Shown: positions 3,205 to 55,981 of the stretch, piece by piece
Layout: every line of letters begins with the position of its first letter
Numbering within the stretch: position 1 is the first letter of the stretch
Source of the DNA: Candidatus Omnitrophota bacterium
Lineage (GTDB): Bacteria; Omnitrophota; Gorgyraeia; Gygaellales; Profunditerraquicolaceae
Assembly (NCBI GenBank): GCA_028715415.1
Contig: JAQURX010000006.1
Location: 8,505-72,504 of the forward strand
Length of the DNA stretch: 64,000 nt
Direction: 5' to 3'
Notes under the pieces: generated by a model
Told to the model about the DNA's origin: nothing
What the model saw: the letters and a program-made list of their open reading frames with translations, nothing else
The model's database searches: none
Program-made: the position numbers and the translations under genes

Positions 3205-4695
3205 ATGAAACGAATACTTATTTTGATTATAGGAATTGCTATTTTCCTGAGTGGCTGTACTATGGCTCCGAAGTATAAGAAGCCGCAAGCTCCGATTTCC
3301 AGCAATTGGCCTACAGGGGATGCTTATTCTACAGACAAACAGGCAGCTAATGTTAAGGATGTTACTAAATTAAAATGGCGAGAATTTTTTACTGATCCGA
3401 GATTGCAAACGATTATTCAGACGGCTATACATAATAACCGAGACCTGCGGCTTGCTGTTTTGAATGTTGAAAAGGCACGGGCATTATACGGAATTTCGTG
3501 GTCTAAGTTGTTGCCGGTTGTTGATGCCGATGCAGGGTATAGTAAGCAAAAATATTCTTCTGATTTTGTGGCCGCGGGAACTCCGGATACAATCAAACAA
3601 TATAGCGCTAATTTAGGCATAGCTGCTTGGGAGATTGATTTTTTCGGCCGTATTCGTAGCCTTAGTAAGCAGGCATTGGAAGATTATTTTGCTACAGAGG
3701 AGGCCCGTCGCAGCGCGCAGATTACGCTTTTGTCTGAAGTTGCCAGAGCGTATATGATTATTGCTGCAGACCGGGAGAATCTTAAATTAGCTCAGTCCAC
3801 ACTTGAGGCGCAGAAAGGCGTATATAATTTAGTATTGCAAAAATATAAACTTAATCTTGTAAATGAAATTGATTTACAGCGGTCCAGAACCCAGGTGGAT
3901 ACTGCTATGGGAGATGTCGTGCTTTACACGCAACAGTTAGCAAAGGATCAAAACGCGTTAAATCTTCTGGCTGGTTCTGTAGTGCCGGAAAATCTATTGC
4001 CTGCTGGCTTGACAGAAATTACTCCGCTTACCGATATTTTCCCCGGGCTATCTTCCGAGGTATTGCTTAGGCGCCCGGATATTATAAGTGCGGAACACAA
4101 ATTAAAAGGCGCCTATGCTAATATTGGGGCAGCCCGTGCTGCTTTTTTCCCTACTATTTCACTTACAACTACTCTTGGTTCGGCAAGCAATCAATTCTCT
4201 GGTTTATTCTCAGGCGGTAGGGGTACGTGGAGCTATGCGCCACAAGTTGTGATGCCAATTTTTGATCCAAGTATATGGTTTGCATATAGAGTTAGTGAAA
4301 CGTCTCGCAAAATAGCACTGGCTCAATATGAAAAAACCATTCAAACAGCCTTCAAGGAAGTAGCTGATGTCCTTGCTGTGCAAGGCACAGTTAACCAGCA
4401 AATAGTGTTGCAGCAATCTATGGTTGATTCCGCGCAGAAAGTTTATACCCTTTCAAGCAAGCGCTATACAAATGGAATTGATAGCTACTTGAGTGTTCTT
4501 GATGCGCAGCGATCGCTTTACAGGGCACAGCGGGAGCTCATCCTCATGCAGTTATCCAAGTTGGTTAACGAGGTAAAGGCTTATGCGGTATTGGGTGGAG
4601 GAGGATTGGATGATACGGTTGAGCAGAGGCGGGATAACCGTGGTTCCTTTGAGGAAAAGATTCTTTCATTGTTAGATCAAAAGTTTAGAAAATAG
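3205..4695 (+). CDS. RND efflux outer-membrane factor lipoprotein (NodT/OprM family)
   Basis: ATG lies 2 nt after the pump stop codon. Signal peptide with lipobox LSGC. 496 aa with the two-repeat TolC-like layout of this family. Confidence 0.85.
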   Translation: MKRILILIIGIAIFLSGCTMAPKYKKPQAPISSNWPTGDAYSTDKQAANVKDVTKLKWREFFTDPRLQTIIQTAIHNNRDLRLAVLNVEKARALYGISWSKLLPVVDADAGYSKQKYSSDFVAAGTPDTIKQYSANLGIAAWEIDFFGRIRSLSKQALEDYFATEEARRSAQITLLSEVARAYMIIAADRENLKLAQSTLEAQKGVYNLVLQKYKLNLVNEIDLQRSRTQVDTAMGDVVLYTQQLAKDQNALNLLAGSVVPENLLPAGLTEITPLTDIFPGLSSEVLLRRPDIISAEHKLKGAYANIGAARAAFFPTISLTTTLGSASNQFSGLFSGGRGTWSYAPQVVMPIFDPSIWFAYRVSETSRKIALAQYEKTIQTAFKEVADVLAVQGTVNQQIVLQQSMVDSAQKVYTLSSKRYTNGIDSYLSVLDAQRSLYRAQRELILMQLSKLVNEVKAYAVLGGGGLDDTVEQRRDNRGSFEEKILSLLDQKFRK

Positions 4696-8841: not shown

Positions 8842-9249
8842 ATGGTTGGATTAGATAAAGAAAAATCACTACAAGGCATTATGGCGCGCTTGGGCGTGCG
8901 TGAGGATGATATTGTAGAAAGATTTGTCCGTGCGCAAGGGCCGGGTGGGCAGAATGTGAATAAAGTCTCTACTTGTGTGCAGCTAATCCATCTTCCTACG
9001 GGCATTGAAGTTAAGTGCCAGGAAGAGCGTTCTCAGGCTCAAAACCGTTATCGTGCCCGGCAGATTCTATTAAAGAAAATTGAGAATTTGATCTTAGGAA
9101 AGCTTTCTGAAGAACAAAAACGCATTGAAAAAATTCGCCGGCAGAAAAGAAGAAGGTCGCGCAGGGCGAAATTAAAGATATTGGAATCAAAACGCCTTCA
9201 TGGCGCAAAGAAAATTTTAAGGGCCCGTGTGCGGGAAACCGGGGAATAA
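8842..9249 (+). CDS. arfB: Ribosome-rescue peptidyl-tRNA hydrolase ArfB (YaeJ)
   Basis: 135 aa with a [15 protein letters not shown]-loop. The C-terminal [11 protein letters not shown] basic tail is typical of ArfB. Confidence 0.85.
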
Positions 9250-9322
9250 AATAAGTAGTTACTCAGCTTAGTGCAGTTTCCGCTGAAGCTATAGTAATAA
9301 ATATTCATAAAGAGGAAAAATA

Positions 9323-9447
9323 TTGATATTATATATAAAATGATATAATAATAAAAACGCAACAGAGGAGATAGTTATGAGTTGCGGAATAAAGAATAAT
9401 TTTAAGGGGCAGATTAAGAGCTAAGTATATCTGCCTCTTATTTTTTT
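9323..9447 (+). promoter_or_regulatory. Promoter (TTGATA ... TGaTATAAT), 15-codon uORF (9377-9424, MSCGIKNNFKGQIKS) and hairpin+U9, an attenuator-like leader
   Basis: Extended -10 at 9341-9349. GAGGAG RBS 6 nt before the uORF ATG. The uORF stop lies in the hairpin loop (GGGCAGAT/ATCTGCCT), which is followed by TTATTTTTTT and then the AGGAGG RBS of the main gene. Confidence 0.4.
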
Positions 9448-48545: not shown

Positions 48546-48593
48546 GAAATGCAGATTAGGAATTATAATTTGATTTCTACCGTTAAATAAACA

Positions 48594-48622
48594 TTGACAA
48601 GTTTTTCTTAAGCTGATAAAGT
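48594..48622 (+). promoter_or_regulatory. sigma70-type promoter (TTGACA, 17 nt spacer, TAAAGT) driving the riboswitch/btu-cob operon
   Basis: Sequence match only. Confidence 0.4.
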
Positions 48623-48635
48623 AGCAATTGACAAC

Positions 48636-48896
48636 TTGAGATTATAGGACAAGGGAAATCAGTAAATGCTGATGCGGTCCCGCCGCTGTAACCTAAGTAC
48701 TTTTTGAAAGAAAAGTAAACTTTTGGCAAGAGATAAAGCCACTGTCAAAAAATTTGATGGGAAGGTAAGCCAAAAGTGTTTAGGAAGCCAGAAGACCTGC
48801 CTATAAAAAAGTAACTCCTCGTGGAAAGGGCTAAGAATAATATTAGGGTGAAGCCTTTGATGACAAATTTAGTCGTCAGAGGCTTTCTTTTTTAAG
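48636..48896 (+). promoter_or_regulatory. Cobalamin (AdoCbl) riboswitch with terminator expression platform
   Basis: AAGGGAA, GCGGTCCCGCCGCTGTAA, GCCACTG, GGGAAGG and the B12 box AGCCAGAAGACCTGCC all present in the canonical order. GAAGCCTTTGATGAC ... GTCGTCAGAGGCTTT hairpin plus T6 at 48849-48896. Confidence 0.9.
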
Positions 48897-49755: not shown

Positions 49756-50698
49756 ATTAAAATTCAGCATTATTTTCTTGTTTCTAATATTGGTTATTGT
49801 AATTATCCTTGGTTTAGTTAAAGGCGCGGTGGATATCCCGTTAACCAAGTTATTGTTTAAGGAGAATCAAGCTATTTTGAACATGCGTTTATTGCGGGTT
49901 TTAACAGCGCTTCTTGTGGGAAGCGGACTTGCTGTCTCGGGGATTGCTTTACAGGCAGTTTTAAGGAACCCTTTGGCAGAGCCATATCTGTTGGGCACTT
50001 CAAGTGGAGCGGGCCTTGCTGCAGTGATTGCGGTTATTTTGGGGATTTCAAGAATCTATATGCCTTTAGCTGCTTTTTTGGGGGCAGTTGTAAGTATAGT
50101 AATTGTCTATAATCTGGCAAGCGAAGGCAAGAGAATCTCCAGCAATTCTTTAATCCTTTCCGGAGTGATTATCTCTATAGCATTTTCCGCGGTTATCGTT
50201 TTTCTTGTTTCAATATTCGGTAATGAGGCTATGCATGAGGTGTCTTGGTGGCTCTGGGGAAGTTTACAGGTCTATGATTATAAATTAATCCTTTTAGTTT
50301 CTTTTCCGGTGTTATTGGGGATAGCTGCGATTTACTTCTTTGCTCAGGATTTAAACGCAATCAGCATGGGCGAAGAAGAGGCAATGCATCTTGGTATAGA
50401 TGCGCAAAATATAAAGAAGATTTTAATTTTGATAACTGCTTTGATAACTGCAAGCTTGATTTGTATATGCGGGATTATCGGTTTTGTTGGTTTGATTGTC
50501 CCCCATATGATGCGTAGGGTTGTTGGGCCTAATCATAAGGTGCTTATCCCGATTACTTGTTTGGCTGCGGCGATTTTTATGGTTGTCTGCGACCTTTTGT
50601 CGCGGACTATTTTTGCTCCGATTGAAATTCCTATAGGAGTTATTACTGCTATCATCGGGACGCCTGTATTTGTTGTTTTGTTGAAGAAGAGAGTTTAA
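49742..50698 (+). CDS. btuC: FecCD-family ABC permease (BtuC-like)
   Basis: About 9-10 TM helices. Overlaps the btuF end. Confidence 0.85.
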   Translation: MKKIKLKFSIIFLFLILVIVIILGLVKGAVDIPLTKLLFKENQAILNMRLLRVLTALLVGSGLAVSGIALQAVLRNPLAEPYLLGTSSGAGLAAVIAVILGISRIYMPLAAFLGAVVSIVIVYNLASEGKRISSNSLILSGVIISIAFSAVIVFLVSIFGNEAMHEVSWWLWGSLQVYDYKLILLVSFPVLLGIAAIYFFAQDLNAISMGEEEAMHLGIDAQNIKKILILITALITASLICICGIIGFVGLIVPHMMRRVVGPNHKVLIPITCLAAAIFMVVCDLLSRTIFAPIEIPIGVITAIIGTPVFVVLLKKRV

Positions 50699-50706
50699 TA
50701 TTCATC

Positions 50707-50898
50707 TTAATGTTTCGGCATTTTTGCTGTAGGCGCATTAGAAAATTTTTGGCACAGCTATTAACATTAGTGCGCAAGGATTTACGAGCAGCGAAGGACA
50801 GCTATATAAGAACGCTAAGCCGTAGCGACGAAGTAAACCGCAGCGCACGGCAAAAATTTTCAGCGCCGGAAGCGAAAATGCCGAAACACAACATCAGT
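50707..50898. repeat. About 190-bp intergenic element bounded by 14-nt perfect inverted repeats (TGTTTCGGCATTTT / AAAATGCCGAAACA), MITE-like
   Basis: Inverted repeats at 50711-50724 and 50885-50898. Internal AGCGAAG-type motifs. Begins TTAATGTTTCGGCATTTTT, which resembles the ends of the element at 52811-53340. No credible ORF. Confidence 0.55.
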
Positions 50899-50906
50899 TT
50901 AATATT

Positions 50907-51707
50907 ATGGAATCTTTATTAAAAATTAAGAATCTTACCGGTGGATATTACAAAGAAGATATTGTCAGGGATATATCTTTGGAAGTTAACCGCCGTGATT
51001 TTGTAGGGATTATCGGGCCGAACGGAAGCGGGAAGACTACGCTTCTTAGGTTTGCAACAAGGATTCTGGCTCCAAGAAGCGGAGAGATTACTTTTGAAGA
51101 TAAAAACATCTTTGATATGAATTTAAAGGAATTCTGTCAAAAGGTCGCATTTGTTTCTCAGGATATTCCCATTGATTTCTCTTATAGCGTAATGGAGTTT
51201 GTGCTGATGGGAAGAATCCCGCATTTGCAACGCCTGCAGTTTGAGACAAAAAAAGATTTTGAGATTGTTCAAAACGCCCTTGAATTAACTGATGCGGTTT
51301 ATTTGAAAGATAAAAGAATTGATGAGTTAAGTTCAGGAGAACGCCAGCGTTTAATTATCGCAAGAGCGCTTGCGCAAGAACCAACCCTTTTATTCCTGGA
51401 TGAGCCGACATCGCATCTGGATATTGGACATCAGATACAGGTGTTAGATCTTTTAAAGAGGCTCAACCAGAAAAACAATTTAACAATTATAATTGTTTTG
51501 CATGATCTTAATCTTGCAAGTGCATATTGTAACCGTATTGTTCTGCTTGATAGCGGCAAAACTTTTAAAATTGGTCCTCCCGAAGAAGTGTTAACTTATC
51601 AGAATATCGAAGCAGTTTATAAAACAGTGGTTTTGGTAAACGATAACCCTTTGACACATAAACCAAATGTTGTTTTGGTGCCGGGAGATGTTAAACGTGG
51701 CAACTAA
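50907..51707 (+). CDS. btuD: ABC transporter ATPase (BtuD/FecE-like)
   Basis: Walker A GPNGSGKTT, LSSGERQR signature and Walker B LLFLDEPT. No SD upstream, since the element abuts the start. Confidence 0.85.
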   Translation: MESLLKIKNLTGGYYKEDIVRDISLEVNRRDFVGIIGPNGSGKTTLLRFATRILAPRSGEITFEDKNIFDMNLKEFCQKVAFVSQDIPIDFSYSVMEFVLMGRIPHLQRLQFETKKDFEIVQNALELTDAVYLKDKRIDELSSGERQRLIIARALAQEPTLLFLDEPTSHLDIGHQIQVLDLLKRLNQKNNLTIIIVLHDLNLASAYCNRIVLLDSGKTFKIGPPEEVLTYQNIEAVYKTVVLVNDNPLTHKPNVVLVPGDVKRGN

Positions 51708-52293
51708 AATAGTCTTAATTAGGCACGGTGTCACCAGATGGAATAAAGAAAAGCGTTATTGTGGGTGTATGGATATAGGTTTGAGCAAAGAAGGCAAAGC
51801 TCAGGCTGAAAAATTAAAAAAGCATCTTTCCGGAAATAAATTCCATAAAATATATTCCAGTGACCGAAAACGCGCACTTCAAACCGCAAAGATAATCTTT
51901 AAAGGTTTAAAGCTTATACAAGTTAAGGGTTTGCGCGAAATGAGCTTTGGCGTCATGGAGGGGTTAAGGCATGATGATATTCTAAAGAAGTATCCAAAAG
52001 AATACAGCCGTTGGTTAGAGAATCCTTTTAAATATAATATTCCTAAAGCAGAAGCACTGGTTGATTTCAAAAAAAGGGTAAACTGTGCTATTAGAAAGAT
52101 TGTTGATTCTAACCGGGGGAAGACTGTTGCTGTTGTTTGTCACGGAGGAGCAATCGGAATATTTGTTACAGGAATCCTAAAGAAGAAAGATTTTTGGCGC
52201 CATGTCCCCAAGACTACTAGTGTTACCATTGTTGAATTTATGAAAAATAAACCAAAGATAAAATTATTTAATGCTGCAAGCCATTTGGAGTAA
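51688..52293 (+). CDS. cobC: Alpha-ribazole-5'-phosphate phosphatase (histidine phosphatase family)
   Basis: LIRHGVTRWN (the RHG motif). GGGAG RBS before the ATG at 51688. Sits inside the cob cluster. Confidence 0.75.
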   Translation: MLNVATKIVLIRHGVTRWNKEKRYCGCMDIGLSKEGKAQAEKLKKHLSGNKFHKIYSSDRKRALQTAKIIFKGLKLIQVKGLREMSFGVMEGLRHDDILKKYPKEYSRWLENPFKYNIPKAEALVDFKKRVNCAIRKIVDSNRGKTVAVVCHGGAIGIFVTGILKKKDFWRHVPKTTSVTIVEFMKNKPKIKLFNAASHLE

Positions 52294-52299
52294 TTAATA

Positions 52300-52815
52300 A
52301 TGAGCAAAATTATTTTAATTTTAGGCGGGGCAAGGAGCGGAAAGAGCTCTTATGCTGTGAGTTTAGCGAAAAAGTTTAAAAAGATAGCTTTTGTTGCTAC
52401 ATGCGAAGGATTGGATAGGGAAATGAGAAAACGCATTGAGCTGCATAAGAAAGATAGGCCTAAAAATTGGAAGACTTATGAAGAGCCAAGAAATGTTTCA
52501 GAAGCAATAAAGAAAATTGACAATTCATTCGATTGTATCCTTATAGATTGCTTGACGCTTTTAGTTTCAAATTTAGTTTTAAATAAATTTAATCAGGAAA
52601 AAATCATTAAAGCAATTCAGGAGATGTTGGTTGATTTAAAGAAAAAGAAAGCAACTGTGATAATTGTTTCCAATGAAGTCGGATTAGGAATTGTCCCTGC
52701 AACTAAATTAGGAAGAGAGTTTCGTGATATAGCCGGCAGGGTTAATCAGGTTGTAGCAAAAGAAGCTGACAAAGTGTTCTTTACGGTTTCCGGAATAGCA
52801 ACATGTATTAAATGA
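52300..52815 (+). CDS. cobU: Adenosylcobinamide kinase / adenosylcobinamide-phosphate guanylyltransferase
   Basis: P-loop ILILGGARSGKSSYA. 171 aa, as for CobU/CobP. Confidence 0.85.
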   Translation: MSKIILILGGARSGKSSYAVSLAKKFKKIAFVATCEGLDREMRKRIELHKKDRPKNWKTYEEPRNVSEAIKKIDNSFDCILIDCLTLLVSNLVLNKFNQEKIIKAIQEMLVDLKKKKATVIIVSNEVGLGIVPATKLGREFRDIAGRVNQVVAKEADKVFFTVSGIATCIK

Positions 52816-53340
52816 ATCTGCCGTCTTTAAAGCTTGAATTTTAGTGTTTGCTTTCGGCGCTGAAAATTTTTGCCGTGTGTTCTTTAATGAATCTGTCGTT
52901 TTTCTCGCTCAGGTCGATTTTTTAACGGCAAAGGTCTCTCGTATTTTGGCGGCTGCTGAACTCGTCGCATTTGCTCTAGCAAATGCTCCTCGGACAGCAT
53001 CGCCGTCCCGATATTGTCCCGCCCTGTCGGTCGGGACATCGGGATTCCCAAAATACTCGAGCATGCTTTGCCTAAAATCGACATTCGCTCGAATAAGCGA
53101 CAGATTCATTTATAATAGTAAGAGTTTCAGCAGATGGCTTGGCTTTTGTTTTATCGGGGCCTCCGAGGATGCCGAGCGGGCACGGATGCCCAGCTAAATA
53201 GAAAGTAGGCAGAGCGAGGCACCGCAGGGGAGCGAAATTTTGCCTCGCAGGGGCAAAATAAGCGTCCCCGAGAAAACAAAAGACAAGACAGACGCGTAAG
53301 AAATAAGTTGAATTAATCAAGAAGAATAATAAATAGTCAA
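52811..53340. mobile_element. About 530-bp non-coding insert, noticeably G+C-richer than its flanks: three copies of AATGAATCTGYCG (two direct, one inverted) bounding a 226-bp unit with nested GC-rich hairpins, plus a second structured about 230-nt segment
   Basis: Motif copies at 52811-52828 (overlapping the cobU stop), 52885-52903 and inverted at 53097-53110. Hairpin TCCCGAT-att-GTCCCG-ccctgtcggt-CGGGAC-ATCGGGA at about 52999-53044. GCGAGG ... CCTCGC and GGGCA ... TGCCC stems at 53170-53270. No RBS-supported ORF. Confidence 0.5.
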
Positions 53341-53355
53341 AATATAGGAGATTAA

Positions 53356-54414
53356 ATGAAGGTAATTAATGAGATAATTTCAAATATAAGCGGTATTGAT
53401 CAAGAGTTGGTCAAGAAGACTCAAGCGAGATTAGATAACCTAACTAAGCCTCTTGGAAGCTTAGGCAGGTTAGAAGAATTAGCAAAACAGATTTGCGGGA
53501 TTACAGGTAAGGATTATCCGGTATTGGGGAATAAAGTTATTTTTACTCTTGCTGCTGATCATGGAGTTACTGATGAGGGAGTAAGCGCGTATCCAAAAGA
53601 AGTTACGGCACAGATGGTTTACAATTTTCTTGCAAATGGAGCAGCAATAAATGTTTTGGCAAACCATGTTGGTGCCCGCGTTGTGGTAGCTGATGTTGGA
53701 GTTGTAAGTGAGCTTAAGCCAAACCCAAGGTTACTAATTAAGAAAGTAAATAATGGCACTAAGAATATGGCAAAAGGCCCTGCTATGACAAAAGAAGAGG
53801 CGATCAAAGCAATAACTACCGGAATAGGAATATTTGAAGATGAATTTAAGCGCGGAGCAGACATAGTTGGAACAGGCGAGATGGGGATAGGGAACACTAC
53901 GGCAGCAAGTGCAATTACTGCTTGTTTTATAAAGCAGTCGATTGAAGAGATAACAGGCCGTGGTGCGGGCTTAGATGATAAAGGGTTAAAAAATAAAGTT
54001 GAAATCATTAAAAAAGCGCTTTTAGTAAACAAGCCTGATTCCAGTGACGCAATTGATGTTTTATCAAAGGTAGGAGGTTTTGAGATTGGAGGGCTTGTAG
54101 GAATAATTCTCGCTGCTTCTTCTAAAAAGATACCGATAGTAATTGATGGGTTTATTTCGGGAGCTGCCGCACTTATTGCTTATAAGCTTGAGCCTAAAGT
54201 TAAAGATTATATGATAGCTGCGCATAAATCAGTTGAAGGGGGGCATAGGTTTATTCTGGATTATATCGGATTAAAACCTCTCATTGATTTGGATTTAAGG
54301 TTAGGCGAGGGAACCGGAGGGGCGCTTGGTATAGGATTAGCTGATGCTGCAATCAAGATCCTTACTCAAATGGCGACCTTTGAAAGCGCTAATGTTTCCG
54401 AAAGGGGTAAGTAA
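53356..54414 (+). CDS. cobT: Nicotinate-nucleotide--dimethylbenzimidazole phosphoribosyltransferase
   Basis: 352 aa with GTGEMGIGNTT and the family-typical glycine-rich segments. AGGAG RBS. Confidence 0.88.
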   Translation: MKVINEIISNISGIDQELVKKTQARLDNLTKPLGSLGRLEELAKQICGITGKDYPVLGNKVIFTLAADHGVTDEGVSAYPKEVTAQMVYNFLANGAAINVLANHVGARVVVADVGVVSELKPNPRLLIKKVNNGTKNMAKGPAMTKEEAIKAITTGIGIFEDEFKRGADIVGTGEMGIGNTTAASAITACFIKQSIEEITGRGAGLDDKGLKNKVEIIKKALLVNKPDSSDAIDVLSKVGGFEIGGLVGIILAASSKKIPIVIDGFISGAAALIAYKLEPKVKDYMIAAHKSVEGGHRFILDYIGLKPLIDLDLRLGEGTGGALGIGLADAAIKILTQMATFESANVSERGK

Positions 54415-55169
54415 TGAGTAGATTTTTATTAGCTTTACAGTTTTTGACTATTTTCCCCATAAAGATCAAAAGTGTTTCTGTGAAAAAACTGTCAGGGTCT
54501 CTTATTTATTTCCCGGTTGTAGGTTTAGTAATCGGATTGATGCTTGCGGCGTTATATACTCTGTTGATTAATTTAGATTTTACTTCATTTGCAACAAGTG
54601 TTATCACAGTGATTGCGCTAATTATTATTACCGGAGGAATGCATTTTGATGGCCTTGCTGATACTTTTGATGCTTTATTAAGCGTAAGATCAAAGGAAGA
54701 AATGTTGCGTATTATGCGTGATCCTCATATTGGAGTTATGGGGGTGTTAAGTATTATAAGTATTGTTATTCTAAAGATCGGATTGTTATCTTCAATTGAT
54801 GTTGAAAATACAATCAAAGCTATTATTTTGATGTGTGCACTTGGCAGGTGGTCGGCAGTATTCCTCATGTTTAATTTTCCATATGCGCGCAGTGAAGGGA
54901 AAGCAAAAGTTTTTATTGATGGGATGAATTTAAATATCTTTACGCTTTCTGCAGCTATAGTTATTTTAATTTCCGCGGCAATCTGGCAGGCAAAAGGATT
55001 ATTAATTTTATTAGTTATGACAGGGGTTGTCTATTTATTCGGCTTGCTGACTAAGAAAAAAATAGGAGGAATTACCGGAGATACATTAGGCGCTGGGATT
55101 GAATTGGCTGAGTGCGCCATTTTATTTAGTTTTATAATATTGGAAAGGAATTGCCAATGGATAAATTAA
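54414..55169 (+). CDS. cobS: Cobalamin-5'-phosphate synthase (adenosylcobinamide-GDP ribazoletransferase)
   Basis: Polytopic membrane protein with a GGMHFDGLADTFDAL motif. Confidence 0.85.
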   Translation: MSRFLLALQFLTIFPIKIKSVSVKKLSGSLIYFPVVGLVIGLMLAALYTLLINLDFTSFATSVITVIALIIITGGMHFDGLADTFDALLSVRSKEEMLRIMRDPHIGVMGVLSIISIVILKIGLLSSIDVENTIKAIILMCALGRWSAVFLMFNFPYARSEGKAKVFIDGMNLNIFTLSAAIVILISAAIWQAKGLLILLVMTGVVYLFGLLTKKKIGGITGDTLGAGIELAECAILFSFIILERNCQWIN

Positions 55170-55831
55170 CAGCAATATCGTCTTGGAGCGGGGGAAAGGA
55201 TAGTTGTTTAGCTTGTTATAAAGCAATTAAACAAGGCTACAAGATAAAGTGCCTCCTTAATTTTATCTCACGGGAATCCCAGCGTGGCTGTTTTCATGGG
55301 ATTGAAGGAAGGCTTCTTAAGCATCAGGCGGATTTGGTGGGGATTCCTTTGGTGCAAAAAGAAGTTAGCCCTGACATGAAAGAATATGAGGAAGAATTTA
55401 AAGAGGCGGTTAATGATATAAGAGGAAGTGAAATTGCCTCAATGGTATTCGGGGATATCTATCTTCTTGAACATGAGAGTTGGGTGGAGCGTGTTTGTGG
55501 AGATTTAAAAATTAATGCTGTTGAGCCGTTATGGGAAAATAATCCCGAGAAAATAATTGATGAATTTTTGGATGCTGGGTTTAAGGCGGTTATTGTAAGT
55601 TGTAAAGCGGATATCATGGGAAAAGAATTCCTTGGCCGCCAAATTGATAAAAAACTAGTTGAGGAATTAAAAAAGAAAGGAGCGTGCCCTTGTGGTGAGA
55701 ATGGGGAATATCATACATTAGTAATTGACGGGCCTATATTTAAAAAGCCAATTGAAATAGTTGAGGCCCAACCAATTTTAAAAGAAGGGTTTTGGAAACA
55801 CTGGTTTTTGGATATTAAAAAATTCAATTAA
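55151..55831 (+). CDS. PP-loop ATP pyrophosphatase of the Dph6/MJ0570 (ATP_bind_4, diphthine-ammonia ligase-like) family
   Basis: SWSGGKDSCLA PP-loop. About 226 aa. Overlaps the cobS end, so it is translationally coupled inside the cob operon. Confidence 0.65.
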   Translation: MPMDKLTAISSWSGGKDSCLACYKAIKQGYKIKCLLNFISRESQRGCFHGIEGRLLKHQADLVGIPLVQKEVSPDMKEYEEEFKEAVNDIRGSEIASMVFGDIYLLEHESWVERVCGDLKINAVEPLWENNPEKIIDEFLDAGFKAVIVSCKADIMGKEFLGRQIDKKLVEELKKKGACPCGENGEYHTLVIDGPIFKKPIEIVEAQPILKEGFWKHWFLDIKKFN

Positions 55832-55981
55832 CTTTTTTTGAGAAGAAAAGCCGGATAGATGAAGGAAGTCTTGGTGTAAGCCCAAGCGCTGTCGCGCAAC
55901 GGTAAATCTCTTTTAGGGATAAGCCCGGTCGATCATCTATCATAAGGAAAGTACTCTCGCATGAAGAGAAAGGATTTAAGA

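Follow-up and report, generated by a model that had tools for sequence, protein, structure and literature searches.

Small palindromic repeats are known from well-studied bacteria, and almost nothing is known of them in uncultured phyla. The subject here is a stretch of 64,000 nucleotides (nt) from a Candidatus Omnitrophota genome (GenBank assembly GCA_028715415.1, contig JAQURX010000006.1, positions 8,505 to 72,504 of the forward strand), called the window below, with positions counted from its first letter. In it the genes cobU and cobT of a vitamin B12 salvage operon stand 540 nt apart. Judged from its sequence, the gap between them combines members of at least three element families, here named A, B and C, in a mosaic, and with slightly more confidence than doubt we read it as a nested cluster of small non-coding, hairpin-forming, non-autonomous mobile foldback elements in a once tightly coupled cobU/cobT junction. 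Element A, a branched palindrome of 229 nt, is the principal concern of what follows.

Described small palindromic elements

By behaviour, the closest known counterparts of A would be the mosaics of repetitive extragenic palindromic (REP) sequences, REP doublets forming hairpins (REPINs) and bacterial interspersed mosaic elements (BIMEs), while those of B would be ordinary miniature inverted-repeat transposable elements (MITEs). Sequences of the REP and REPIN kind can be inherited vertically over long spans of time, and their handling, as single-stranded hairpins, is attributed to an HUH/Y1 enzyme whose gene lies elsewhere (PMC8266576; bioRxiv 10.1101/2021.07.10.451892). Like REPs, REPINs and BIMEs, A is intergenic and non-coding, takes the form of palindromic hairpins within multi-motif mosaics, and makes no target duplication. 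The differences lie in size, shape and number: A measures 229 nt against 20-40 nt for REPs and about 100 nt for REPINs, its apex is branched and its junction sequences are conserved, and it occurs in few copies where REPs and REPINs number tens to hundreds. No open reading frame (ORF) resembling a REP-associated tyrosine transposase (RAYT) was noticed among the A neighbours examined, that is, in 8-kb loci and one 64-kb window.

The Correia (NEMIS), ERIC and RUP elements are small, bounded by inverted repeats, found in transcribed operon spacers, and form long RNA hairpins; those of Correia/NEMIS type, from Neisseria, are 100-160 bp long, with 26-bp inverted repeats and a TA target duplication. 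Element B fits this kind. Element A differs from it in its length of 229 nt and its occurrence in Omnitrophota, shows neither a TA nor any other duplication and no sequence relation, and has an interior under structural selection.

Integron attC sites lie just after the stop codon of small promoterless cassette ORFs, often of defence or toxin type. They are imperfect palindromes that are read as folded single strands, without target duplication (PMC5027507, PMC6393395). Elements A and C resemble them in having a structure more conserved than expected and a variable terminal structure. The fold of A includes conserved mismatches and internal loops. However, the attC core sites R'' (RYYYAAC) and R' (GTTRRRY) are absent both from A (AATGAATCTG / CAGATTCATT) and from C (GCGGGTGGCTTGG / CCAAGACAGGACCCGC). 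Moreover, two elements, A and C, bracket an ORF, whereas in integrons and clusters of attC sites lacking integrases (CALINs) each cassette has a single attC; neither arrays nor an intI gene were seen in the A and C loci, and A also stands between housekeeping genes without any cargo.

The ends of IS200/IS605 insertion sequences and of palindrome-associated transposable elements (PATEs) involve no inverted-repeat-dependent DDE chemistry and no target-site duplication; they are asymmetric and structured, and such elements give rise to ORF-less derivatives and occasionally carry passengers. Insertion of IS200/IS605 takes place 3' of a fixed 4-5-nt target, and the ends are short subterminal hairpins. 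A shares the lack of a target-site duplication, but it is a 229-nt foldback with terminal inverted repeats, its left flank offers only a weak YTT, tnpA or tnpB is found in no A locus, and C belongs to no Rfam family of the omega-RNA type. In shape only, A also recalls the inverted terminal repeat of parvoviruses (adeno-associated virus), a long palindrome with an apex of two small hairpins (a T or Y) that occurs in two orientations and serves as a viral telomere in hairpin transfer; A is internal to a bacterial chromosome, bears no sequence relation to that repeat and shows no sign of that mechanism. A full-text search of the literature found no description of such elements in Omnitrophota.

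Structure of the cobU-cobT gap

The gap (52816-53355) follows cobU (52300-52815) and precedes cobT (53356-54414). Its G+C content over 52875-53324 is 0.47-0.55, against 0.25-0.41 in the flanking genes and 0.389 in the window, and it folds more stably than shuffled sequence on both strands (z = -6.8 and -8.3). A 117-aa ORF (52844-53197) and the ORFs on the minus strand are unconserved among homologous copies, which marks the gap as non-coding, and a search of it for promoters and terminators found none. Across the 64 kb there are exactly three copies of the 13-mer AATGAATCTGYCG, at 52811-52823 and 52886-52898 on the plus strand and at 53098-53110 on the minus strand, where shuffling leads one to expect 0.15 and three copies were reached in 0 of 100 shuffles. 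The components of the gap are as follows.

52807-52816 and 53351-53360, plus strand: 10-bp direct repeat ATTAAATGAA (left and right copies), at the cobU stop and the cobT start
52811-52846, plus strand: degenerate relic of an A-type left terminus (AATGAATCTGCCGTCTTT...), supplying the cobU stop TGA
52847-52880, plus strand: B-type hairpin arm, directly upstream of A
52884-53112, plus strand: element A, complete, 229 nt (covariance model R1, 231 bits)
52886-52901, plus strand: left terminal inverted repeat of A (AATGAATCTGTCGTTT)
52954-52999, plus strand: first apical hairpin of A (family helices 10 and 11)
53009-53047, plus strand: second apical hairpin of A (family helix 12), with a 3-nt bulge, ATT, on its 5' side
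53095-53110, plus strand: right terminal inverted repeat of A (AAGCGACAGATTCATT)
53120-53131, plus strand: remnant of the other B-type arm, pairing with 52859-52870 at 83%; a weak, short segment
53132-53293, plus strand: element C, about 160 nt (nhmmer E = 1e-33)
53294-53355, plus strand: AT-rich tail, with the cobT Shine-Dalgarno sequence AGGAG at 53346-53350

An earlier, sequence-only reading of this DNA had already described a non-coding, G+C-rich gap of 540 nt, and it had counted the three 13-mers, given their orientations and placed the first of them over the cobU stop (TGA, 52813-52815), all of which stands; the second copy begins at 52886, not at 52885 as given there. It had also taken the first direct 13-mer as a boundary of a 226-bp unit. 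That 13-mer is instead what remains of the end of a different A-type copy, and it is joined to a B-type arm. The nested hairpin that it called perfect (TCCCGAT and GTCCCG with CGGGAC and ATCGGGA) is present as the second apical hairpin of A, bulge included. The further long stems that it noted exist as well (53135-53159 with 53266-53290), but the structures belong to the separate families A, B and C and not to one unit with additional stems.

The 16-nt terminal inverted repeats of A are 94% complementary. On the left of A, positions 52847-52877 are 93.5% identical to the reverse complement of 50846-50876 in the complete element B found elsewhere in the operon, and the minimum-free-energy fold pairs the B-arm segments 52859-52870 and 53120-53131 around A. 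A B-type arm lies directly upstream of A at two other loci (loci are cited by our own numbers: the second copy in L034, and L047), and the junction of an A terminus (positions ~1-38) with B recurs in the window (52808-52883), in L052 and in L065. A appears to have been inserted into a B-type hairpin, beside an older A relic. The AT-rich tail has no homologues in the loci of other species, its matches being the window itself, a contig from the same sample (L002) and weak chance ones; it may be native sequence, a view that draws on comparison of the cobU 3' end with that of relatives.

Two Logan contigs from the sample (L001 and L002, SRR22315506) match the window over 50848-52912 and from 53267 onwards. 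Short-read contigs of the same sample end within B, within C and at a point 27 nt into A. Breaks at these points suggest further copies of A, B and C in that sample, and the elements are probably under-counted in metagenome-assembled genomes (MAGs) because they fragment Omnitrophota assemblies.

Insertion into a tightly packed operon

In relatives whose CobU is 70-71% identical (L066, L067 and L069/L070), the order btuF-btuC-btuD-(cobC)-cobU-cobT-cobS is kept. There cobU and cobT lie 18, 0 and 0 nt apart respectively, btuC and btuD overlap or abut, and neither A nor C is present within about 4 kb on either side. Given that the same operon in these relatives has its cobU and cobT genes 0-18 nt apart, the block in the window is an insertion, and the same is true of the btuC-btuD gap: both are insertions in a tightly packed operon. 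The suspicion of a discrete, structured insertion bounded by inverted repeats is borne out by these empty sites, by homologues elsewhere and by the strong covariation described below.

The exact junction can be drawn in two ways. The CobU of the window ends in ...IK at the point where the A-type terminus starts, while those of the relatives read ...IKG or ...IKA and in most cases run up to about 10 further residues beyond. The left copy of ATTAAATGAA spans the last two cobU codons, the stop and one extra base, and if the 544 nt between the two copies were excised, cobU and cobT would again overlap through an ATGA stop/start. It is possible that this repeat is a duplication made by insertion, but a 10-mer repeat is at about chance level in this region. 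Alternatively, an insertion after ATTAAA, before a retained GGAGATTAA, would fit the relatives equally well.

The second gap holds the complete element B:

50703-50895: element B, complete, a 193-nt hairpin between btuC and btuD (208-nt gap)

Its arms (50711-50736 and 50863-50888) are inverted repeats of 26 nt, 85% complementary, and an 11-bp perfect direct repeat, AGTTTAATATT, brackets the element at 50692-50702 and 50896-50906; the btuC stop codon lies inside one copy of this repeat and the other abuts the btuD start codon. Copies of the B family are also present in L065 and L052. Its inverted repeats, together with a flanking duplication of 11 bp, give B the look of a classical MITE.

The family of element A

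A scan of 185,579 species representatives, one genome per species, with a strict pattern taken from one arm of A returned 27 stretches, of which 16, from 14 MAGs, hold a real A match; the other 11 match the search pattern only. Omnitrophota account for 15 of the real matches, in 13 MAGs, and the remaining one lies in a MAG that bears the label Planctomycetales. A scan of metagenomes added 36 loci, which brings A to about 50 loci, nearly all of them in Omnitrophota MAGs or in metagenome contigs whose taxonomy is not stated. With a covariance model (R1; 229 positions, 70 pairs), 48 copies are recovered on the forward strand, and 34 of these are full-length at E ≤ 1e-34. The 64-kb window has no more than one A and one C, and this could be cited in favour of a unique spacer or a decayed gene remnant whose repeats arose by chance; such an explanation is as good as refuted by three 13-mers above chance, about 50 homologous loci, strong covariation and the lack of a conserved ORF. 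The search for other copies, which the sequence-only reading had named as a check, therefore leaves no room for a unique spacer. Families A, B and C recur at unrelated sites and, the one Planctomycetales label aside, in Omnitrophota wherever the organism is named.

Conservation begins and ends abruptly, at (TT)AATGAATCTG ... CAGATTCATT(TA), and the flanks beyond are unrelated. Among the 34 full-length copies no conserved ORF was found, frames and lengths being variable. One candidate for a small protein gene, a 71-aa minus-strand ORF that spans A from end to end in L004, was rejected as unconserved across these 34 copies.

Mean identity within the family is 75%, against 97.5% for the intragenomic pair L024-L026 and 93.8% for L036-L058; copies from the same genome are mutual closest relatives and stand in different contexts. 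The MAG Prado152 has 2-3 copies, and one 379-kb contig has two. Truncated copies, either solo termini or copies with internal deletions, are found in L033, L052, L015, L031 and L012/L057. One point in the element breaks repeatedly: positions ~38-43 (about 52921-52926 in the window), just after GTCGATTTT, host the variable side hairpin (0-40 nt), a 94-nt insertion in L065 and the internal deletion in L012/L057, and it is there that solo termini of A stop or are joined to B (L052, L065 and the relic in the window).

Locus L034 carries two divergent A copies (72% identical) in opposite orientation, at 3938-4170 on the minus strand and 9193-9410 on the plus strand. They bound a housekeeping operon comprising an unidentified 377-aa gene, trmD, rplS, rnhB, yraN and folD; an NYN gene and C come after one copy, and a C- or D-like shell after the other (family D is described below).

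Conservation of the fold

RNAalifold and pair counts give A a long imperfect stem that leads to a three-way junction with two apical hairpins, a Y shape, with a side hairpin of variable length (0 to ~40 nt) after position ~40. Folded as DNA, element A has a dG of -64 kcal/mol (z = -11.8). Standard pairs fill 93.6% of the paired cells of the alignment, against 33-47% in slid controls. Compensatory changes, in which both sides have altered, affect 37 of the 70 pairs, and the observed score was reached by 0 of 500 shuffles; in helices 10, 11 and 12 they touch 7 of 7, 3 of 4 and 7 of 7 pairs. The covariation that the sequence-only reading had proposed to look for in homologous copies is thus plainly there.

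Such covariation across the whole fold, seen in C as in A, is an argument for regarding both as functional structured RNAs, whether small RNA genes or cis modules excised from read-through transcripts (RNase III or stability elements, processing sites, or partners of RNase-type cargo), that have spread by duplication of useful modules. We consider this unlikely, though it is the chief rival to mobile elements. Conserved single-stranded junction sequences and a side hairpin that often has UUCG-like closing loops belong to the same picture. The wobble pairs do not: leaving out one isolated pair (82/252), G:U occupies 17 and A:C 25 of about 2280 cells, and a near absence of G:U is atypical of RNA helices in an AT-rich genome. 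Given that G:U is no commoner than A:C, neither strand is favoured and pairing is strictly Watson-Crick. Loops leave the strand undecided, as UNCG-type loops on the plus strand and GNRA-type loops on the minus strand both occur. Nor is there a match to a known family (the sequence-only reading had recognised no B12 riboswitch, tRNA, tmRNA, RNase P or SRP RNA motif): Rfam 15, whose families include the cobalamin and AdoCbl riboswitches, 6S, tmRNA, RNase P, SRP and HEARO, at the gathering threshold reports two B12 riboswitches in the window, both outside the gap, yields only chance hits in the gap at E ≤ 10, and has no hit at E ≤ 0.5 in ten other A loci (some with C); ARAGORN finds no tRNA or tmRNA.

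Distribution bears on the RNA explanation as well. A and C sit in transcribed intergenic space inside operons, persist at the same locus in related species, and keep company with RNase-like genes (NYN, AbiJ, in which HEPN is usual, and one weakly HEPN-like gene), all of which would suit a functional RNA. On the other hand, the flanks are unrelated, with no conserved promoter or terminator attached to A; occurrence is patchy, with only the few MAGs listed above among the 185,579 species representatives under the strict pattern; and truncated relics exist beside near-identical intragenomic copies.

Each arm of A carries a CGCTC (52906-52912 and 53085-53091), and the two face one another in a conserved internal loop. 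CGCTC is complementary to the GAGCG-like motifs of C described below, and from the sequences GAGCG/CGCTC could be a shared protein-binding motif.

Flanks, orientation and hot spots

No target-site duplication accompanies A. Across 31 independent copies the mean adjacent repeat is 0.88 nt, against 0.97 nt for mismatched flanks, and neither adjacent repeats nor the longest shared substring gave a signal over the mismatched-flank control at any offset. TT predominates in the left flank and TA in the right one, with a weak palindromic extension (YTT / TAA) that reaches at most 0.64 bit per position on the left. Between co-directional neighbours A lies in sense 16 times and in antisense 9 times, which amounts to no orientation preference with respect to host transcription and, together with the wobble counts, does not favour a strand-specific RNA. 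The sequence-only reading had left open a mobile element or a structured RNA; of these two, insertion and duplication are established. The placing of A is often intimate with the preceding gene: the stop codon of the upstream gene falls within the TTAATGA terminus of A in L028 (duplicate L030), L037, L009, L062, L044 and L060, so that the terminus supplies the upstream stop in at least 5 independent loci, as the relic terminus does for cobU.

These observations bear most directly on the proposal that A is an ordinary MITE derived from a DDE transposon, of the Correia, ERIC or RUP kind, which the sequence-only reading had offered and which we now hold to be very improbable. A does have terminal inverted repeats, is small, non-coding and intergenic, occurs in several copies and leaves relics; furthermore, element B, in the same operon, fits the kind. 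Yet 31 independent copies without a target-site duplication, and with only the weak YTT / TAA extension, are hard to reconcile with it, as is selection that acts on the entire 229-nt fold and not on the termini alone. Copy number is low, no related insertion sequence turned up (no dedicated search for one was made), and phage and plasmid collections show no similarity (blastn in distant mode gave no match, and a scan of viral contigs gave 0 hits).

Four conserved intergenic intervals hold A in related Omnitrophota:

SPFH and purD: L004, L016, L039, L046, L055, L056, L065
amidohydrolase and MTAP: L020, L028, L042, L060
murJ and uvrC: L009, L012, L021, L033
folD and metF: L013, L014/L034, L048, L054

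In these four hot-spot intervals A is found in both orientations, and the accompanying genes differ. Accessory genes there include AbiJ-like, NYN and HEPN-like genes, membrane proteins, and a large ORF that by eye is RhuM/Fic-like. In relatives that have neither A nor C (L071-L074), the SPFH site holds VanZ, or a ParE toxin gene with a small upstream ORF, presumed to be a toxin-antitoxin pair. The SPFH interval being hypervariable in these relatives, A and C are not needed for the turnover of cargo there. When ORFs from -4 to +5 kb of A were clustered in search of a recurrent enzyme neighbour, only syntenic housekeeping genes recurred.

Element C and its companion genes

Element C has an outer stem, GCGKKTGGCTTGG / CCAAGACAKRMCGC, at 53135-53159 / 53266-53290 (25 nt, 88% complementary), and an inner hairpin, TTTTGCC..GGCAAAA. 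Between 53171 and 53270 its plus strand carries four GAGCG-like motifs, which in the window copy are three exact GAGCG and one AAGCG. It too covaries, with 96% of cells paired and compensatory changes in 12 of 25 pairs. In about 20 of the 24 loci that have both elements, C lies downstream of A in the same orientation, at a distance that is 5-22 nt in cases such as the window and reaches about 1000 nt elsewhere. Where the two are separated, one unrelated ORF stands between them; at least 8 loci have such a single ORF between A and C or a C-like shell. Of the 8 ORFs between A and a detected C, 7 are co-directional with A, and C begins 20-50 nt past the stop of the cargo ORF. The intervening ORF has a G+C content of 0.30 in both L004 and L028 and of 0.41 in L016, where the locus as a whole is at 0.43-0.44. 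Pfam searches of ten cargo ORFs gave NYN, AbiJ_NTD4 and a weak HEPN, and no recombinase.

This arrangement invites the idea of A and C as recombination sites made of folded DNA, one on each side of mobile one-gene cassettes, in the manner of attC, integrons or IS200/IS605, with A on the left, C on the right and the cargo-free A-C pair as the empty or minimal form. The recurrent order, the single unrelated ORFs (low in G+C in L004 and L028), their direction and their closeness to C all accord with it, as do the AbiJ, NYN and HEPN-like cargo, of the sort found in defence cassettes, the lack of a target-site duplication, the strictly Watson-Crick pairing and the recurrent breakpoint or insertion point at A position ~40. 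The duplicated unit of L024/L026, which begins with A and extends into the first part of C, accords with it as well. Still, we judge the idea decidedly unlikely. The ends read AATGAATC...GATTCATT and lack the canonical attC core (RYYYAAC ... GTTRRRY); an integrase or HUH gene was seen in no locus; arrays of more than one cassette were not seen; A often stands alone by housekeeping genes, at least 9 loci having no C within 2.4 kb or more; and the SPFH interval is hypervariable in relatives without any A or C.

A further G+C-rich hairpin family, D (GCGGGTGRCTGCGGAGCCGAAGCCC...CAGGACCCGC), has termini in common with C and a different interior. Its copies are:

L039, 4938-5023
L058, 1293-1374
L024, 5856-5936
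L036, 1564-1639
L016, 4836-4924

Further hairpin families with C-like termini adjoin A in other loci, and hairpin shells with swapped interiors seem to be common in these genomes.

Operon setting

The B12 salvage operon runs in the order riboswitch, btuF, btuC, btuD, cobC, cobU, cobT, cobS. Its remaining features in the window, and those just beyond it, are these.

48593-48818: cobalamin riboswitch (Rfam, 65.6 bits), ahead of btuF; the insertions sit inside the operon under its control
55151-55831: gene for a 226-aa protein, after cobS
55836-55980: adenosylcobalamin (AdoCbl) riboswitch (Rfam, 53.2 bits), preceding a gene for a TonB-dependent receptor

The position of the gene for the 226-aa protein, and its position only, matches that of a Diphthami_syn_2 (ATP-binding) family gene in the syntenic operons L066, L067 and L069. 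A gene of the Diphthami_syn_2 type is an unusual yet conserved member of a B12 operon.

Interpretation and implications

Element A has sharp palindromic ends, makes no target-site duplication, lies in either orientation, duplicates within genomes and leaves decay products. Insertion of the block and duplication of A are shown; the fold may act in DNA or in RNA. Given compensation that is Watson-Crick only, no strand bias and no target duplication, A is most likely recognised as folded single-stranded DNA, and it would be read in that form by a trans-acting enzyme of the HUH/Y1 or the tyrosine-recombinase type; a DDE transposase for A seems unlikely. A would prefer other hairpins and gene-end junctions as targets, which would produce mosaics such as the present one, with A inside a B hairpin and beside an A relic. 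As no promoter or terminator was detected in the gap, the block is expected to be transcribed through. It would replace the translational coupling of cobU and cobT by about 540 nt of stable stem-loops and a separate ribosome-binding site for cobT, and one may speculate that it acts at the RNA level on cobT and cobS, perhaps as an RNase III or stability element.

Several points weigh against a cluster of mobile foldback elements. One is the fold itself: all 229 nt of it, with the three-way junction, the conserved junction sequences and the variable side hairpin, are kept by compensation, and compensatory evolution of a whole fold is expected of a functional RNA and unusual for selfish DNA. A nucleotide comparison of empty and filled sites for A only was not obtained, the empty sites being those of the composite block or of hypervariable intervals; at the SPFH hot spot the interval in relatives without A and C is too variable to align for such a site. 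The intergenic interval that holds A is shared by related species in four groups, and vertical persistence fits this as well as repeated insertion does. Further, no transposase or recombinase adjoins any A copy, to our knowledge A has no autonomous parent element, and 1-3 copies per MAG (by the strict pattern) is low for typical MITE or REPIN populations. Finally, we infer the single-stranded-DNA mechanism only from the missing target-site duplication and the missing wobble.

A bolder proposal, tentative and on balance doubtful, would make A and C the opposite ends of an unrecognised folded single-stranded-DNA system of Omnitrophota, with a 229-nt Y-shaped left end, a 160-nt right end and room between them for single foreign genes of defence or toxin type. 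Such a system would move without target duplication, home to gene-end and hairpin junctions, and use an enzyme not yet identified. If this is true, it would add a cassette or transposon system that lacks integron cores and ends of the IS200/IS605 type alike. Likewise, if A and C are functional RNAs, they would represent a new class of structured RNA.

For the nested cluster of mobile foldback elements that we favour, A is unusual among small non-autonomous palindromic elements in its size, its branched and conserved fold, its lack of a target-site duplication, its low copy number and its pairing with a second element. In practical terms, these elements break short-read assemblies of Omnitrophota, and within the genomes themselves they uncouple genes in operons such as that for B12 salvage. 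More broadly, the combination of a fold kept across dozens of species, pairing free of wobble, insertion without target duplication, placement at stop codons and the partner element C would point to an uncharacterised enzyme that acts on folded DNA.

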